The position numbers were made by a program, and so were the translations under genes. Shown here in pieces: positions 1-6,396 of a stretch of DNA of 22,265 nt. This DNA comes from Rikenella microfusus (GTDB lineage Bacteria > Bacteroidota > Bacteroidia > Bacteroidales > DYQK01). The stretch is from assembly GCA_020719385.1 (NCBI GenBank), contig DYQK01000047.1:1287-23551 (forward strand), in the 5' to 3' direction. The notes beneath the pieces were generated by a model. That model had not been told where the DNA came from. It worked only from the letters and a program-made list of their open reading frames with translations, and did no database searches. Every line of letters starts with the position of its first letter. The first letter of the stretch is position 1.

Positions 1-890
1 GTCCAAAAACCTGTTGCAGGATATGGATTTTCTGCTTGCAAAAATGTTGAGTCTGCACAAATATCTCTATCTGCACCTGCAGAAATCAAAATTTGATTAT
101 TGACAACTGTAATGACATCTGTAGATTCGCAATTTTGATTAGTGACCGTCCATCGATAATTGTTAGTCCCAAAAGCGATATTCGAAACTCTTGTATTAAA
201 AAGTGTAGAATTTTCAAAAATTCCCGTTCCTCCATCAACAGTCCATTTTCCTTTTGCTGTGGGAGAAAATGTTTGAGGATTATTTGCCGCTAAGTGTGTC
301 CAATTATCACAAGTTATTTCGTCATTGCCTGCATGGGCAGGAACTTGACTTTTTAAAACTATCATTTCCGCAGAACTTGAACAAGTTTCAGACGAAACAG
401 TCCAAGTAAAAATATTTTCTCCAAAAGCTAAATTTCTGACAAGAGTGTTATAACTTGTCGGATTTTCAATAATGACTTGAGGAATATTGCAAGTCCAAAT
501 TCCTGTTGCACCCAAAGACGGCATTACTGCGTTAAGAATCGCAGAAGTGTCGCAAATATTTTGACTATTTCCTGCACTCGTAACGACAGAATTGCTTGTA
601 ATTGTTACCTCATCGAAAAGAGAGTTGACAGACCATCGAAAACGATTTGCTCCAACACCTAAACCTCGCACTTTTGTGTTGTAAAGTGTTGAATTTTCGA
701 AAATTCCTGCTCCTGCAATAACAGACCAAAAACCTGTTGCGGGGTAAGGATTATTTGCCTGCATAAAAGTCGAATCGGCACAAATTGCTTGGTCTTCACC
801 CGCATAGACAACTTGCGATTTTACTTTTTCACAAAATAAAGTGAAAAATATACTCAAAATGAGTAACGAAAAAATTTTTAAACGTTTCAT
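1..890 (-). CDS. Partial (3'-truncated by window edge) secreted protein built from ~82-aa tandem repeats; N-terminal signal peptide MKRLKIFSLLILSIFFTLFCEKVKSQ
   Basis: ATG at 888-890 (revcomp). I translated the minus strand by hand from 890 to 1 and found no stop. This ORF is absent from the six-frame track. The repeat unit (C.D.....A..P...TG.W....G.G.F.NST..NT.V..L..G.N.F.W.V) recurs 4 times, and the nucleotide repeat is visible too (e.g. 1-60 vs 721-790). Confidence 0.6.
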   Translation of the reverse strand, partial: MKRLKIFSLLILSIFFTLFCEKVKSQVVYAGEDQAICADSTFMQANNPYPATGFWSVIAGAGIFENSTLYNTKVRGLGVGANRFRWSVNSLFDEVTITSNSVVTSAGNSQNICDTSAILNAVMPSLGATGIWTCNIPQVIIENPTSYNTLVRNLAFGENIFTWTVSSETCSSSAEMIVLKSQVPAHAGNDEITCDNWTHLAANNPQTFSPTAKGKWTVDGGTGIFENSTLFNTRVSNIAFGTNNYRWTVTNQNCESTDVITVVNNQILISAGADRDICADSTFLQAENPYPATGFW

Positions 891-998: not shown

Positions 999-2768
999 TT
1001 AATGAATACAATTTGATTTTCTGATTTTTGCAAAATTAGTGTTTTTTGTCTGATTCCATTCGTCATATTTTTTTTGCAATTCGATGTCATTTGCCAAAAA
1101 AACGGTATAATGTTCTAACAATTCAACAATTTTTGAATCATCAGAAAATAAACTAATTTTGTTAAATTCCATTTTTTCGATGATTTTCTTAACTTTTTTT
1201 TCTGTATATTTGTCTAAACTTTTCAAATATTCAAAATCTTGTTTCCATTTTTGCGTGTAACCAATTTTTTCATAAAAAAAACGGTACACCAAATAATCAT
1301 TTGGCATGTACAACAATTCGATAAATTCTTCAAGATTTTTACCAAATGCTTTTTCGACAAATGCTCTTCGATGCCCGATTTTGCCATAAGTGGCATTTAA
1401 AATCGAATAAATTGCCCGAATAAATTTTTTATTCCAATATTTTCCATAATTATCTCTTTTTCGAGATTTATTTCCTTCTATTTCTAAATATTTCATTGGA
1501 AAAGAAAATATTTTTAAACCTAATTCTTCTCGCAAATCCGTATTTATTTTAATTCGGTGATAAAAATCTTCGGGTTTGTCAGTGAAATTGTAAAGTATAT
1601 AATTTGAAAAATCTAAAATTCCAAATTTCACACATAACCGAATTGCTTTTTCGTAATGTTTTCGAAATTTAATGTTGTCAAAAGCAATACGCACGGGACG
1701 AATTGCAATTTCACTTAATAATTTCGCTTTTTTTTCGTCGAGTAAACGGGCATCAATGCCTTGATTAAAATCAACATATCGATTTTTCCCATGTTTTTTT
1801 AAAAATTTTGCGTACCACTCAATAATTTGTGGAAATTCAGATAACAGTTTTAACAAAATCTCTTTTGTTTCAGAAAAATTTTCGATTTTTACATTAGAAT
1901 TTTCTAAATTATGTGTTTGCAAAAAAGAATTTAACTTCGTAGAATCGGTTTCTTTTAATTTTTTCAACAATAAATGTATGTGTTCGACAATTTTTCGTAC
2001 ATAAAATTTTTCATTACAATTTTTTTTGTTCAAATTATTAAAATATATCTCTAACCAATTCGGTTCAACATATTTTGCACCTTTATAAAAACCAATTTCT
2101 TTTATTTCCTGAATAATTTTTTCGAAATTTTCAGAATTTAAAACATTATTATCTAATAAAATTAAATCTTTTGGTTCACCAAAAGTATTTTTAATATATT
2201 CGAAATTATCTTTTAACGGAATATAATGTTTAAATGTCGGTTCAATAATTGGAACAGCACAAAATTTACATTTATTGCTACAGCCTCTTGTTGTGTAAGC
2301 AAAATATGCATCAGAAACAGGATATTTATACTCAATTTCTTCCAAAATTGAATAGTCAAGAGGTAAATTGTCAATAATTGTGTCGTTTTTATCTAAAATA
2401 TTTGGTTTATCAAGTAAACCAAAGTGAATATTAATTTTACTAAATAAATTTGCGTTAAGAATATTTTCAATTTCTTCTTTGTGTATCGAAGCAGTTATTC
2501 CGCCAACCCATAATTCTCCATCTTTGTTTAAAAGTTTTTGAGCATATTGAATTGTTTCGATAGTTTTTTTCCAATAAAATGTAAAAAGTGTCGAAACGCA
2601 AATTCTGTCATAAAAATTTTGTTTATCTTTTGAAAAATTTTTAATATCTCCTTTAAAAAAAGTAACCTTATCACCTAAATCTCGGTGATAAGTTGCAAGT
2701 TTCATTAATCCGATGGGCGGATATTTGTTTTTGTAACTGGGTTCTAATAATAAAACTTTACGATTCAT
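999..2768 (-). CDS. Large radical SAM protein (589 aa) with an N-terminal Rossmann/B12-binding-like region and a CX3CX2C cluster motif
   Basis: Motif TTRGCSNKCKFCAVP (C-x3-C-x2-C) near residue 160. N-terminus KVLLLEPSYKNKYPPIGLMKLATYHRDLGDKVTFF resembles B12-binding-domain radical SAM enzymes. Its start overlaps the upstream gene's stop by 1 nt at 2768. Confidence 0.8.
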   Translation of the reverse strand: MNRKVLLLEPSYKNKYPPIGLMKLATYHRDLGDKVTFFKGDIKNFSKDKQNFYDRICVSTLFTFYWKKTIETIQYAQKLLNKDGELWVGGITASIHKEEIENILNANLFSKINIHFGLLDKPNILDKNDTIIDNLPLDYSILEEIEYKYPVSDAYFAYTTRGCSNKCKFCAVPIIEPTFKHYIPLKDNFEYIKNTFGEPKDLILLDNNVLNSENFEKIIQEIKEIGFYKGAKYVEPNWLEIYFNNLNKKNCNEKFYVRKIVEHIHLLLKKLKETDSTKLNSFLQTHNLENSNVKIENFSETKEILLKLLSEFPQIIEWYAKFLKKHGKNRYVDFNQGIDARLLDEKKAKLLSEIAIRPVRIAFDNIKFRKHYEKAIRLCVKFGILDFSNYILYNFTDKPEDFYHRIKINTDLREELGLKIFSFPMKYLEIEGNKSRKRDNYGKYWNKKFIRAIYSILNATYGKIGHRRAFVEKAFGKNLEEFIELLYMPNDYLVYRFFYEKIGYTQKWKQDFEYLKSLDKYTEKKVKKIIEKMEFNKISLFSDDSKIVELLEHYTVFLANDIELQKKYDEWNQTKNTNFAKIRKSNCIH

Positions 2769-4383
2769 TATTTTAAAGTTTTTTTAATTTGAGATATCAA
2801 CTCCTCGCCGCAAAGTGATGGATATTTGCGAATTACATCAACTATTGTTGAAAGTTTAAATAACTTATTTTCAACAACATCATTTTCAATTTTTTTATTT
2901 TCGTTAATATTTGAAATTTCGTTGATTACTTTCTTGGTCTCTTCACTTTTTTTTTCCAAATGAACCGTCTTTTCAATTTCGATTTTTTTCGAAATTTCTT
3001 CTTTTCTCTTTTCTATGGCATTTTTTATTACAAAACTTCGAAGAGAATTTTCAGATTTTGCTTTTTTCATTTTATTTTCAATATCAATCTTTGTTTTTTC
3101 AACCTCTTTTTTCTTTTTTTGCATTTCATTATATTCTAATTTTTTTTGTTCTTCATCTTCAAATGAATTTTCTTTCTGTTTTTGCTCAAATTCAGAAATA
3201 GCAATTCTGGCTTTTTTTAATTTATTTATCAAAGAATTAACTGCAGCTTCATCTTGCGGAAGTTTACTATAACCATACAAAACTTCTCGCAATACTTTTT
3301 GAAATTGCTTAACGCAATATTCATTTTCAACAAAAAAATCTCTTCGTGCATTTGGAATTAATTCTTTGTTAAAAACAAATATTTCACCTATAAAATAATC
3401 GTTCCATCTATCTCGTTTAAAAAATTTATCTAAACTATTTTCGTCACCAATTTGAATATTGTGTTTTCGCAAACGAAATCCTCTTATTGCTTTATAACTA
3501 TTATGAACCATTTTACTCATAGAATCTCTTATCGCAAACCATCCATAAAACAAAATACTTCCTTCATTATCGTGTTTTTCAAAATATTCCAACATTTGTA
3601 TTTTATCAGATTTTTTTGTATCCTCTTCTTTTGTTGTCTCATCTATAACAGATAATTCATCTGTATAATTTTTGAATATTGGCAAATTATTTAGATGAAC
3701 ATTATATTCATATTCACTTATGGGTAAATTAAGTTCTTTTAACTTCGAATATATCTCATTTCTAAAACTAAAATTTGAAGAATAAGCAACAGGAGCAACT
3801 GTGGATAAATACAGTTTTATGCCTTCGACATCCAACAAATCATCATTAGTAACTTTTTCTAAAGTTACATAAAAATAATGTCGATTAATATCTTCTTCGA
3901 AAACTTTAAAATCTGTTACTTCACGTATGACTTCAACAGCTTCTCTTCTTGTTGTGGAATTATAAAGTATTTCTTTCAATTTTTTCGCATCCCAAATAAA
4001 AATACTTTTTTTCGCTTCACCTTTATAAGACGTTTCAAAAATTAATTTTTCACAACAAGCAAGTCCTCCGAGACGTCCAATACCTCGAAACCCTTTTTCT
4101 GTATTTCTATTTTTTCAGATTCAGCAATATTTCCTAACAAAGATTCAACATATTGCGACTCTATACCTGTACCATTGTCTCGAATTCTAATTTTTCGTTC
4201 ATTTTTAATTATTTCAACATGGATAGAACTTTCACTTTGCATTTGCAAAATATTCATTCTCACAGCTTTATCAATAGAATCAGCAGCGTTTTGTACATAT
4301 TCTCGAAAAATAATTCGTGGGTCTTCATACATTCCTGTAGTTAAAACTTCAATGACATTCTTGCCAATACGAGGATAACTCAT
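2768..4383 (-). pseudogene. GHKL-superfamily ATPase (Hsp90/MutL/MORC-like Bergerat fold) with a long K/E-rich C-terminal coiled coil. It is split into two ORFs (4042..4383 and 2768..3979, extendable in-frame upstream to ~4114) by a 1-nt frameshift in a homopolymer at ~4091-4098; intact length ~535 aa
   Basis: N-box REYVQNAADSIDKA and G1 box IRDNGTGI lie in the 113-aa ORF. The G2 box KGFRGIGRLGGLAC appears in the -1 frame immediately after the T5/C3 run, and that frame continues directly into the 403-aa ORF, which starts on TTG. Confidence 0.65.
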
Positions 4384-4409
4384 AATTTTTAATAAATTTA
4401 AAATTTTTG

Positions 4410-4440
4410 CAAAATTAATTTCTTTTTTCGAATTTACAAA
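4410..4440 (-). promoter_or_regulatory. Bacteroidetes-type promoter TTTG-N19-TAATTTTG upstream of the GHKL ATPase/radical SAM pair
   Basis: On the minus strand tattTTTGtaaattcgaaaaaagaaatTAATTTTG lies about 29 nt before the ATG at 4383. It matches the Bacteroidetes sigma-A consensus (-33 TTTG, -7 TAnnTTTG). Confidence 0.4.
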
Positions 4441-4458: not shown

Positions 4459-6396
4459 TCAAATCTCTCGACCCAAATGTTTAAAACCTAAAAATAAAAT
4501 CAATAAATCATTCCGAAGTTTATAATTTTTTGCATAATTCATATTTAATTTTTGTAAAATCTCACTCGAAAAGTCAATATTCGGCAAAGAATCGGCAACC
4601 GTCAACACGCCTTTTTTCAACCTCGGCAAATGAATCTCGTTAAAATGTGAAACTGAAACATAACCAACAAAAGTATTTTTACCTCTTAAAACGTTAAAAA
4701 TATTTAAAAAATATTTCTTTTTGTTAATTATTGCAAAAATGAAAATCGGAAAAAACAAAAACAAACACAAAGAAACCGAAATATCTAAAAACCTTTTTCG
4801 CAAACGATTCTGCGGCTTGCTTATCGCATTCATATTTAACTCGTAAAAATGCTCCTCCGCAAAAATCGAATGACTCCCAATTATCGCAACATTCTCTGGC
4901 GGAATAATTTTATACGCAACTTTACAATCCGCTAAATTCCACATATTCTCTATAATTTCTTGCGAAGACAAAGAATCAGCTGAAAAAATTATCTCATCAA
5001 TTTTATTCATTTTAACCATTTCGCGAAGCGAAGAAACTTGCGAAGGTGAAACAAAATCGACAACTTCAAAATGAATTTCGCTTTGTTTTAACAAATTTAA
5101 AATCTCATTTTGTTCAACATTTCCAACAATTAACAACCGTTTTTTTTGCGAAAACGAAAATTGATAATTTTGAAACTTTAAAAAATGTAAAAAAGTCCTA
5201 AAAAACATTAAAATTATCACAGAATAAGCAAAACCCAACAAAATCAATGCCCGCGAATAGCGATATTTCTCACTCAACAACGCATAAATTAACAAAATCG
5301 CTATTGTTCCCAATGTTAAACCTTTCAAAATATCAAAAAATTTGAACGGTTTTTCGTATCCCCGCGACAAATACAACGAAATTAACCAAATAAAAATGTA
5401 AAAAGGTACAACAATACTCCAATATTCTGTCGGATAAATATCATTTTTCCCAAATTTATACAATTCCCAAAACGGAGCAAGAAAAAAATATCCCAAAAAA
5501 ATAAACGTAGAATCGCAAAAAGGCAAAAATATTGCGTCAATAAAACGCTTCAAAAGCGAAAGAAAAGCCCGAAAATAAACCGCAAATTTTATGATATACG
5601 AAAAAATCTTTGCATTTTGCTGCGAAAAATGTTTTTTCGCAAAAATTAACATCGCTTCATAAAAAACTAAAACATAATTTACGCTATTTTTCTTCGTACT
5701 CTCGCCTTTGTAATGAATAATTGTCGTTTCTGGAAAATAAAAATTTTTGTAACCTGCTTTCAAAATCCGATAAGAAAGGTCAATATCTTCGCCGTACATA
5801 AAAAAAGTTTCGTCCAAAAGCCCGATTTTATCAAGCATTTCCTTACGCAAAAGCATAAACGCACCTGACAAAATTTCAACTTCGTTTGTCTTTTCTTTGT
5901 CCAAATAAGTTAAATGATATTTCCCAAAAGTTTTCGATTTCGGAAAAATTTTCGAGAAACCAAAAATTTTATAAAACGCAACCGCAGGAGTCGGCAAGGA
6001 ACGCTTCGATTCGGGCAAAAAATTCCCATTTCCATCAATCATTTTCACACCCAAACCGCCTGCCTCGGAATGAGAATCCATAAAATTTACAATTTTCACA
6101 AACGTTTCCTCCTGCACAACCGTATCAGGATTCAATAACAAAACATATTTGCCCTTTGCCAAACGAATCGCTTGATTATTTGCTCTCGAAAAACCCGTAT
6201 TTTGTTTATTTTCAATGAGATAGACCTCAGCAAATTTTTGTTTAACCATCGCACAAGAACCATCGGCAGAATTGTTATCAACGACAAAAATCTCTATCTC
6301 GGAAGGCAACAAATTCGCTGCTTTCCTCACAGAATAAAGGCATTGCTCCAAAAAATACTTCACATTATAATTGACAATTATCACCGAAAGTTTCAT
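4459..6396 (-). CDS. Family 2 glycosyltransferase domain fused to a polytopic membrane domain and a C-terminal Rossmann-like region
   Basis: N-terminus LSVIIVNYNVKYFLEQCL...VVDNNSADGS...NQAIRLAKGKYVLLLNPDT is a typical GT2 (GT-A) fold with the DxD region. The middle ~250 aa is strongly hydrophobic (multiple TM helices). The C-terminus has RLLIVGNVEQNEILNLL, a Rossmann-like start. Confidence 0.7.
   Translation of the reverse strand: MKLSVIIVNYNVKYFLEQCLYSVRKAANLLPSEIEIFVVDNNSADGSCAMVKQKFAEVYLIENKQNTGFSRANNQAIRLAKGKYVLLLNPDTVVQEETFVKIVNFMDSHSEAGGLGVKMIDGNGNFLPESKRSLPTPAVAFYKIFGFSKIFPKSKTFGKYHLTYLDKEKTNEVEILSGAFMLLRKEMLDKIGLLDETFFMYGEDIDLSYRILKAGYKNFYFPETTIIHYKGESTKKNSVNYVLVFYEAMLIFAKKHFSQQNAKIFSYIIKFAVYFRAFLSLLKRFIDAIFLPFCDSTFIFLGYFFLAPFWELYKFGKNDIYPTEYWSIVVPFYIFIWLISLYLSRGYEKPFKFFDILKGLTLGTIAILLIYALLSEKYRYSRALILLGFAYSVIILMFFRTFLHFLKFQNYQFSFSQKKRLLIVGNVEQNEILNLLKQSEIHFEVVDFVSPSQVSSLREMVKMNKIDEIIFSADSLSSQEIIENMWNLADCKVAYKIIPPENVAIIGSHSIFAEEHFYELNMNAISKPQNRLRKRFLDISVSLCLFLFFPIFIFAIINKKKYFLNIFNVLRGKNTFVGYVSVSHFNEIHLPRLKKGVLTVADSLPNIDFSSEILQKLNMNYAKNYKLRNDLLILFLGFKHLGREI

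Follow-up and report, generated by a model that had tools for sequence, protein, structure and literature searches.

The window considered here, 22,265 nucleotides (nt) of a Rikenella microfusus contig (DYQK01000047.1), is a low-G+C chromosome piece of Bacteroidota type, carrying tuf with a tRNA cluster, clpX, a POTRA-domain outer-membrane protein, an S46 peptidase and MVP-like genes. Its minus strand also carries, side by side, the two genes that are the subject of this analysis: one for an ATPase of the GHKL (Hsp90/MORC/MutL-like) kind (2768..4383), the other for a large radical S-adenosylmethionine (SAM) protein (999..2768). Glycosyltransferase (GT2) and tetratricopeptide-repeat (TPR) genes stand upstream on the same strand; a secreted-protein gene stands downstream of the radical SAM gene. 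A preliminary description, made from the letters alone, took the two for a module in their own right. Its interpretation is supported overall, with some corrections, one of them an enlargement: the pair is real, but it is normally the 3' half of a four-gene operon, in which genes for a NurA-like protein and a HerA ATPase precede those for the GHKL and radical SAM proteins. On balance, the window locus is probably a reduced, two-gene copy of a widespread, mobile and uncharacterised DNA-directed conflict system, with GHKL ATPase and large radical SAM protein as its core.

The stop of the ATPase gene and the start of the radical SAM gene share one base, 2768, within the sequence TAATG (2766..2770, minus strand), as had been noticed at the outset. 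This is a predicted translational coupling of the two, and overlaps of the sort are usual in the family: among 44 relatives with the GHKL gene directly upstream of the radical SAM gene, the overlap measures 4 nt in 25 and 1 nt in 7. On the other side of the ATPase gene, where 75 nt separate the GT2 stop (4459) from the GHKL start (4383), lies a promoter-like site of Bacteroidetes type, an exact match to TTTG-N19-TAATTTTG (4410..4440, minus strand). The window has five copies of the motif TTTG-N19-TANNTTTG, about 15-fold more than the 0.33 expected, and none of 100 shuffles reaches that number; four of the sites (4410-4440, 10426-10456, 19981-20011 and 20806-20836) are at or just upstream of a gene start, and the fifth (5524-5554) falls inside the GT2 gene. 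That the pair has its own promoter, as first proposed, is plausible. The module is AT-rich, again as described (23-29% G+C, against about 40-42% for tuf and an MVP-like gene), but other ordinary genes of the window also have 27-31% G+C; therefore composition alone is weak evidence of foreign origin, and the accessory status of the pair rests instead on the patchy distribution and mobile-element contexts of its relatives.

The ATPase gene is not intact in the window: a 1-nt frameshift divides it into a 5' open reading frame (ORF) of 113 amino acids (aa; 4042..4383) and a 3' ORF of 403 aa (2768..3979) with a nominal TTG start. The first holds the N-box (EYVQNAADSIDK, 4267-4290) and the G1 box (DNGTG, 4165-4179); the second encodes the transducer (middle) domain, a coiled coil rich in K and E (about 2887-3232) and, at the C-terminus, a small helical domain. 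The G2 box GFRGIGRLGG (4064..4093) comes after the frameshift; it is read in the same frame as the second ORF but precedes the TTG start of that ORF, which makes this one frameshifted gene. Alignment of the window with four near-identical contigs places the lesion in a run of six adenines (A6) at 4110..4115 ('ctgAAAAAAtag', minus strand), not in the later 'cagaaaaaggg'; a seventh adenine (A7) restores the frame and gives a protein of 538 aa, so that the repaired ATPase of about 535 aa anticipated earlier was correct in substance.

The repaired protein is convincingly of the GHKL kind. The three Bergerat boxes that had been picked out by eye come in the right order and fall on invariant columns of the family alignments, the G/F/R/G/I/G/R/L/G columns of G2 being invariant in two GHKL alignments; PF13589 (HATPase_c_3) matches at 38.7 bits against a cut-off of 25, and is also carried by the intact allele found in one of the near-identical contigs. 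In a model of a 42%-identical homologue, an ATPase domain precedes a transducer domain in the predicted fold, the arrangement of Hsp90, MORC and MutL. The repaired protein is not an HtpG/Hsp90 orthologue: NF003555 scores 43.8 bits against 371 and NF010683 46.8 against 455, and the N-terminal 100 residues or so alone match. Databases label the radical SAM, GHKL and NurA-like proteins 'hypothetical', 'ATP-binding protein' or, wrongly, 'HtpG'. The window ATPase is 35-49% identical to the products of GHKL genes beside radical SAM genes at 74 loci.

The radical SAM gene is an intact ORF of 589 aa, as originally read. Its product has a Rossmann/B12-like N-domain (residues 1 to about 105), a radical SAM barrel into which a helical segment is inserted, and a helical domain at the C-terminus. 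The predicted [4Fe-4S]/SAM cluster site is the CX3CX2C motif (C163, C167, C170; 2259..2282, minus strand); these cysteines are invariant in 20 of 20 aligned family members and are the only invariant ones in the family alignment. Pfam matches stay below their cut-offs (Radical_SAM PF04055, 19.6 bits against 29.5; B12-binding, 19.1 against 32.1), and many homologues carry a precomputed PF04055 match. A predicted model (pLDDT 80.3) shows a partial TIM-barrel radical SAM fold with the Rossmann/B12-like domain before the barrel, which bears out the suggestion of a B12-binding-like N-terminus. As modelled, the fold is closest to radical SAM enzymes with an N-terminal Rossmann/cobalamin-like domain: search scores are 14.5 for AprD4, 14.3 for RimO, 14.0 for MgmA, 13.8 for TsrM, 12.7 for MiaB and 12.4 for CysS, against 9.9 for viperin and 9.5 for spore photoproduct lyase. 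The fold search alone was informative; a sequence-profile search of the Protein Data Bank (PDB) with the radical SAM alignment gave nothing useful.

Two more particular identities for this protein can be set aside. MiaB/RimO is rejected by sequence models (TIGR01125, 21 bits against 357; TIGR00089, 16.8 against 251) and by the lack of invariant cysteines outside CX3CX2C: with no second cluster, the protein is not a methylthiotransferase. It is not a prokaryotic viperin (pVip), as viperin models and fold do not outrank other radical SAM enzymes. Curated B12 radical SAM models give it 11-15 bits against cut-offs of 251-360, and it has no SPASM/twitch cluster; nor was a precursor peptide found. 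A familiar housekeeping enzyme was the outcome that would have deflated the preliminary description, and none of its NCBIfam, PADLOC or PDB-sequence matches approaches a cut-off. The family is large: 464 clusters at 50% identity have E <= 1e-30 in an exhaustive search, and a word-indexed search yields more than 6,700 clusters at 90% identity, none of them named. In the annotation sources examined it has no name, and no curated family beyond the superfamily.

Two peculiarities of the window protein turn out to be ordinary. The stretch first described as a long low-complexity insertion does exist, but is a helical subdomain present in all 20 aligned members (alignment columns about 330-420), the window protein being longer by some 17 residues. 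Conversely, the window protein lacks an N-domain insert of about 70 aa common among its relatives. Spacing in this domain is two-state across the family (20-24 or 87-104 residues; a partial count, the motif regex having missed 77 sequences), and each state occurs both with and without HerA; this rules out the missing insert as a sign of decay or as a NurA-HerA interface.

What sets the pair in context is its company elsewhere. The loci examined were the best 80 of each scan rather than a random sample, with genes called by longest-ORF heuristics. In the first three contexts, from Paludibacter, Chryseobacterium and an Altiarchaeales archaeon, the radical SAM gene was each time preceded by a HATPase_c_3 gene. 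When ORFs were clustered around 80 genome loci anchored on the radical SAM gene, four families dominated: the radical SAM protein itself, the GHKL ATPase (about 517 aa), a protein of 555 aa (c2) and one of about 390 aa (c3). GHKL is present in 62 of the 64 loci that could be assessed (those with at least 5.5 kb upstream), and all three partners together in 56 of the 64. The converse holds as well: a set of 80 metagenome loci with the GHKL gene as anchor comprises 69 with the radical SAM gene downstream, 10 ended by the contig edge and one that lacks it, which makes 69 of 70 assessable loci. At the one without (L166, 756-3333), HerA and GHKL are present, and the genes downstream of them, a small one and one for a membrane protein, lie on the opposite strand. 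GHKL-radical SAM linkage is thus near-obligate across phyla, in bacteria and archaea alike; co-occurrence outside the source genome, on which the preliminary description had staked its case, is amply found.

The usual form is then a four-gene operon, NurA-like, HerA, GHKL and radical SAM, scattered over many phyla. The 555-aa protein is HerA (PDB 7f6d_B, E = 4.5e-48). The protein of about 390 aa matches the NurA chain of the same complex (7f6d_H) weakly, with E = 0.13, and its identity as NurA is therefore a lead, not a demonstration; Pfam, PADLOC, NCBIfam and PHROG give no match for it. The window radical SAM protein is 40-56% identical to members of this operon family, and its closest relative (54%) sits in an operon of NurA-like, HerA, NsnB-like, NsnC-like, GHKL and radical SAM genes. 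In the window itself, the GHKL and radical SAM genes are adjacent on one strand as elsewhere, and the upstream NurA-like and HerA genes are missing: tblastn with all members of both families found nothing credible. The window therefore holds a reduced, two-gene form.

The operon varies in order and in content. Optional insertions comprise a second, MzaB-like GHKL protein with a 333-aa protein (c4), an NsnB/NsnC-like cassette together with a duplicate of the GHKL gene, and a membrane protein (c11). The c4 protein (L007, 8994-10004, and 11 other loci) always lies between the MzaB-like second GHKL and the radical SAM gene, and has no match in Pfam, PADLOC, PHROG, NCBIfam or PDB sequences. The c11 protein (about 480 aa; L001, 6505-7992; 5 loci) lies between GHKL and radical SAM in Paludibacter; it has N-terminal hydrophobic helices and no Pfam match, and its C-terminal 'IDIDGVLN' motif looks HAD/nucleotidase-like by eye. 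Forms without NurA-HerA recur, either as second GHKL, c4 and radical SAM (e.g. in Altiarchaeales) or as the bare GHKL-radical SAM pair (L040, L186 and L187). A large group has the reverse order, radical SAM and then GHKL; in IMG/VR contigs the genes in front of it encode either an SNF2 helicase with a ParB-like protein or a NERD-UvrD helicase with an MZB zinc-ribbon protein, and one GHKL-radical SAM pair in these contigs follows an HNH-WYL protein.

Two conjugative plasmids, pNL1 (Novosphingobium) and pR132505 (Rhizobium), have a DGQHR/DpdB-like protein, radical SAM and GHKL in that order, with or without an SNF2 helicase and a ParB-like protein in front; the 'ATP-binding protein' annotated after the radical SAM gene scores 320-332 bits on the family GHKL model. 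Among these alternative partners, the DGQHR/DpdB-like protein matches TIGR03187 at 154 bits and the SNF2 helicase matches ZorD/DpdE/DrmD models; by such matches they belong, together with the ParB-like, HNH-WYL, NERD-UvrD and MZB proteins, to the parts list of DNA-modification and restriction defence. The constant element throughout is the radical SAM-GHKL pair, kept whichever gene comes first and whether or not NurA-HerA accompanies it; what changes is in every case a module of the DNA nuclease, translocase or ParB-fold type; and the carriers are mobile.

The plasmids hold a further arrangement. Beside the DGQHR-radical SAM-GHKL genes, a PIN-like protein of 651 aa is paired with another GHKL protein of the same family (256-260 bits), on pNL1 at L250 4084-7637 and on pR132505 at L251 12212-15728. 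The PIN-like protein has no PADLOC or NCBIfam match, and the two are possibly a second undescribed pair of GHKL plus effector.

Mobility is evident in the distribution and in the flanks. Radical SAM proteins from Bacteroidota, Campylobacterota, Aminicenantes and Altiarchaeales are about 50% identical to one another. Genome loci are flanked by tyrosine integrases (8 loci), conjugative-transposon topoisomerase III with DUF3945, DUF3987 primase, AAA_14/DUF4143, Schlafen-AlbA_2 and AbiEii, and, judged by eye, by TraG/relaxase genes. The sole isolated virus with a radical SAM homologue is Marinitoga camini virus 1 (L252, KP836355, 6998-10824), which carries a short form of 360 aa (phrog_9298, 388 bits) in its lysogeny region, convergent with annotated HerA and NurA-type exonuclease genes and near a resolvase and a LexA-like repressor. 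Some 15 full operons lie in 'viral' contigs of IMG/VR; these may be proviral flanks, and such matches are rejected as proof of phage carriage. Relatives often stand beside integrases, conjugative-transposon genes and AbiE, but the window locus is not in a defence island.

One way to make sense of this organisation is by analogy with restriction-modification. On the pattern of Hsp90, MORC and MutL, the GHKL protein would dimerise on binding ATP and act as a DNA-engaging clamp or sensor, which would recruit or gate the translationally coupled radical SAM enzyme. The latter would reductively cleave SAM at its single [4Fe-4S] cluster, and the resulting 5'-deoxyadenosyl radical would alter DNA or a nucleotide. 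The pair might then be the modification arm of a restriction-modification-like system, whereas NurA-HerA, or SNF2 with ParB-like and DpdB-like proteins, or HNH-WYL, or the NERD-UvrD helicase, would be the arm that processes or restricts phage or plasmid DNA. This logic is favoured for three reasons: the alternative partners (DpdB-like, ParB-like, DpdE-like) are helpers of a known DNA-modification system; radical SAM-GHKL without NurA-HerA recurs; and HerA-GHKL without radical SAM occurs in 1 of 70 loci, where unrelated genes on the opposite strand take its place. A bolder version, rather doubtful at present, would make this a new class of immunity: a radical SAM enzyme loaded or gated by a GHKL clamp would install a radical-derived mark of a new type on DNA (e.g. 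C-methylation or another C-H functionalisation), NurA-HerA or SNF2/DpdB-like proteins would destroy DNA lacking it, and the window copy would be an orphan epigenetic writer, phase-variable through A6/A7.

Several considerations weigh against a DNA-directed conflict system with a modifying pair at its core. A role in defence is suggested by context, and no direct defence marker was found; PADLOC v2 has no model for the radical SAM, GHKL or NurA-like protein. The window locus is outside any defence island, among GT2, TPR and secreted-protein genes. In Deinococcus and archaea, NurA-HerA serves DNA repair. The loci surveyed were chosen for their scores, and the window frameshift may be a sequencing error. 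Finally, GHKL proteins of the same family also pair with the PIN-like protein and with c4, so that a sensor with a swappable effector accounts for this no less well than a modification arm does.

The state of the local copy is a separate matter. A6 is found in the window, in two Logan assemblies and in a contig from the Joint Genome Institute (JGI); A7 is found in a contig (L085) from a metagenome-assembled genome at NCBI (GCA_973320375.1), which is 99.6% identical to the window over 12.8 kb and has the intact 538-aa ORF. Inside the module, these two differ by the A6/A7 indel and one single-nucleotide polymorphism (SNP); across the four assemblies the radical SAM gene is identical and the GHKL gene varies between A6 and A7. 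A single-base lesion in a homopolymer has the form expected of phase variation or of read error. Programmed frameshifting or transcriptional slippage at A6 is unsupported: by eye the zero frame shows no slippery heptamer, and six adenines are a short run. In the JGI contig (L086; JGI 3300000230), an additional 2-nt AA insertion at the equivalent of window position 4208 or so breaks the GHKL gene a second time; the double lesion reflects either genuine decay or sequencing errors in homopolymers.

Since NurA-HerA is missing and most of the sampled strains have a frameshifted GHKL gene, the local module may be off or decaying. It is tentatively possible, and compatible with any of the family-level accounts, that the pair is a non-functional relic of the four-gene system, which has lost NurA-HerA and is now losing its ATPase. 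The failure of tblastn to find a NurA or HerA homologue in the window agrees with this, as do the frameshift in the window and in three of the four near-identical assemblies, the second indel of the JGI contig, and the position of the window radical SAM protein on a long isolated branch of a distance tree, its best match being 54-56% identical. But simple decay sits badly with a radical SAM protein that is invariant across strains and keeps every family-invariant residue, with the intact GHKL allele of L085, and with the preserved promoter and coupling overlap; moreover, forms free of NurA-HerA exist elsewhere, at L040, L186 and L187 with GHKL and as radical SAM-GHKL pairs in IMG/VR contigs. 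The local copy is thus a remnant, phase-off or decaying, or else an orphan modification module.

For the family as a whole, the main rival to a modification arm, though rather unlikely, supposes an arrangement like abortive infection: GHKL would be a shared infection sensor or switch, and the radical SAM protein one of several effectors that can be exchanged, acting through a toxic or chain-terminating nucleotide (as viperin does), RNA or DNA damage, or a drain on SAM, instead of a mark on self DNA. The PIN-like/GHKL pairs on pNL1 and pR132505 favour it, and c4 is a further partner of a same-family GHKL. Also in its favour, AprD4, which heads the fold matches, is a radical dehydratase of 1,2-diols, with chemistry akin to that of viperin, and radical SAM-based defence exists in viperins and Ophion. 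Set against it are the observations that favour restriction-modification logic.

It is improbable that the genes form an accessory to DNA repair or recombination, in which NurA-HerA end resection, a MutL/MORC-like clamp and a repair-type radical SAM enzyme (compare spore photoproduct lyase) would be carried for the maintenance of mobile elements. Distribution is patchy and driven by horizontal transfer, with one copy per few genomes; there is linkage to AbiE, integrases, NsnB/C-like cassettes and Dpd-like parts; and the genes are often disrupted (in the window, at L021, L044 and L052, and at L166), unlike core repair genes. Patchiness, evident transfer and frequent disruption together make housekeeping repair unlikely. 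A biosynthetic pair tied to the upstream GT2 and TPR genes, serving a polysaccharide or RiPP (ribosomally synthesised, post-translationally modified peptide) pathway with GHKL as chaperone, is very improbable and is rejected: those genes do adjoin on the same strand, and the radical SAM fold does resemble B12-type methylases and AprD4 of natural-product pathways, but no conserved glycosyltransferase cluster recurs among the families at 84 genome loci (the 80 metagenome loci were screened for core families alone, so that this negative covers the genome loci), annotated flanks are of mobile-element or defence type, the pair appears to have its own promoter, neither a precursor peptide nor a SPASM/twitch cluster accompanies it, and the HtpG model scores 43.8 bits against 371.

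Other features of the window deserve mention in their own right. An 822-aa MVP-like protein (7840-10308, plus strand), kept in the near-identical contigs, matches MVP_shoulder (96 bits), Vault_3 and Band_7/SPFH. A second accessory cluster (17781-20784, minus strand) encodes a 125-aa DUF6370-like protein, a 314-aa AAA_15/AAA_21 ATPase, a restriction endonuclease of R.HinP1I type (252 bits) and an N4/N6 DNA methyltransferase; the cluster lies about 13 kb from the GHKL-radical SAM pair, with housekeeping genes between. In the secreted-protein gene, window positions 527-725 form a dense patch of SNPs and indels relative to L085 and L087, in strains otherwise 99.6-100% identical; on sequence, this looks like a hypervariable surface-protein region.

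The four-gene set of NurA-like, HerA, GHKL and radical SAM proteins is a concrete, clonable candidate for a new system against mobile elements, in a family that ranges from gut Bacteroidales to Altiarchaeales, conjugative plasmids and prophage-like contigs. If the favoured account is true, it could bring to light new radical chemistry on nucleic acids and a bacterial role for a GHKL clamp parallel to that of eukaryotic MORC, and it would enlarge the set of HerA-centred defence systems. For the source genome the message is more modest: its copy is reduced and, in most strains, frameshifted.

The preliminary description could match this pairing to no described system, and the sources consulted agree: PADLOC-DB v2.0.0 has no family at E <= 0.1 for either window protein, and none for the canonical radical SAM, GHKL and NurA-like proteins; no NCBIfam model names any of these; and no description of a GHKL-radical SAM pairing was found in the literature, where the Ophion report, the Dnd reappraisal and the eLife 2020 paper on conflict systems treat other radical SAM contexts. 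Resemblances to known systems are nevertheless several. In its full form the operon resembles HerA defence (Sir2-HerA, DUF4297-HerA) and the NurA-HerA of D. radiodurans (7F6D) in having a HerA-family ATPase beside a nuclease-like partner; in Sir2-HerA, too, the HerA motor is combined with another enzyme, as in the mobile operon here (PMC11291478, PMC11472057). It differs from Sir2-HerA and DUF4297-HerA in having neither effector, in matching the PADLOC HerA model at 17.8 bits only, and in the GHKL and radical SAM proteins as obligatory extras; the window copy differs further, having neither HerA nor NurA. For the other half of the operon, a nearest known kind is the restriction-modification-like systems of prokaryotic MORC/paraMORC and MzaB-type GHKL ATPases (Iyer et al. 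2008, PMC2292703).

With prokaryotic viperins and the OpnA protein of Ophion (bioRxiv 10.1101/2025.09.30.679545), both radical SAM-based defences, it shares the use of a radical SAM enzyme within multi-gene sets that are mobile and phage-related. From radical SAM enzymes with an N-terminal cobalamin-binding-like domain (AprD4, TsrM, MgmA, CysS) and from the MiaB/RimO methylthiotransferases, the radical SAM protein is set apart by identities of 10-18%, by model scores far below cut-offs, by the lack of a second cysteine cluster, by large helical insertions and by an unrelated genomic context. The cassette found in several relatives, between HerA or GHKL and a second GHKL, matches NsnB (198 bits) and NsnC (27 bits) of Menshen (NsnABC), but NsnA is not seen with it, and the cassette is optional and absent from the window. 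The plasmid variants, with a DGQHR/DpdB-like protein and a DpdE/ZorD-like SNF2 helicase beside radical SAM-GHKL, recall the Dpd 7-deazaguanine system, which is the same kind of assembly of modification enzyme, ParB-fold ATPase and helicase; but neither DpdA nor DpdC is present, the match to the DpdB model reaches 42 bits where the cut-off is 300, and these partners do not occur in the window. Although a member of none of these, the system shares parts or logic with HerA defence, with paraMORC/MzaB, with viperin/Ophion and with Dpd.

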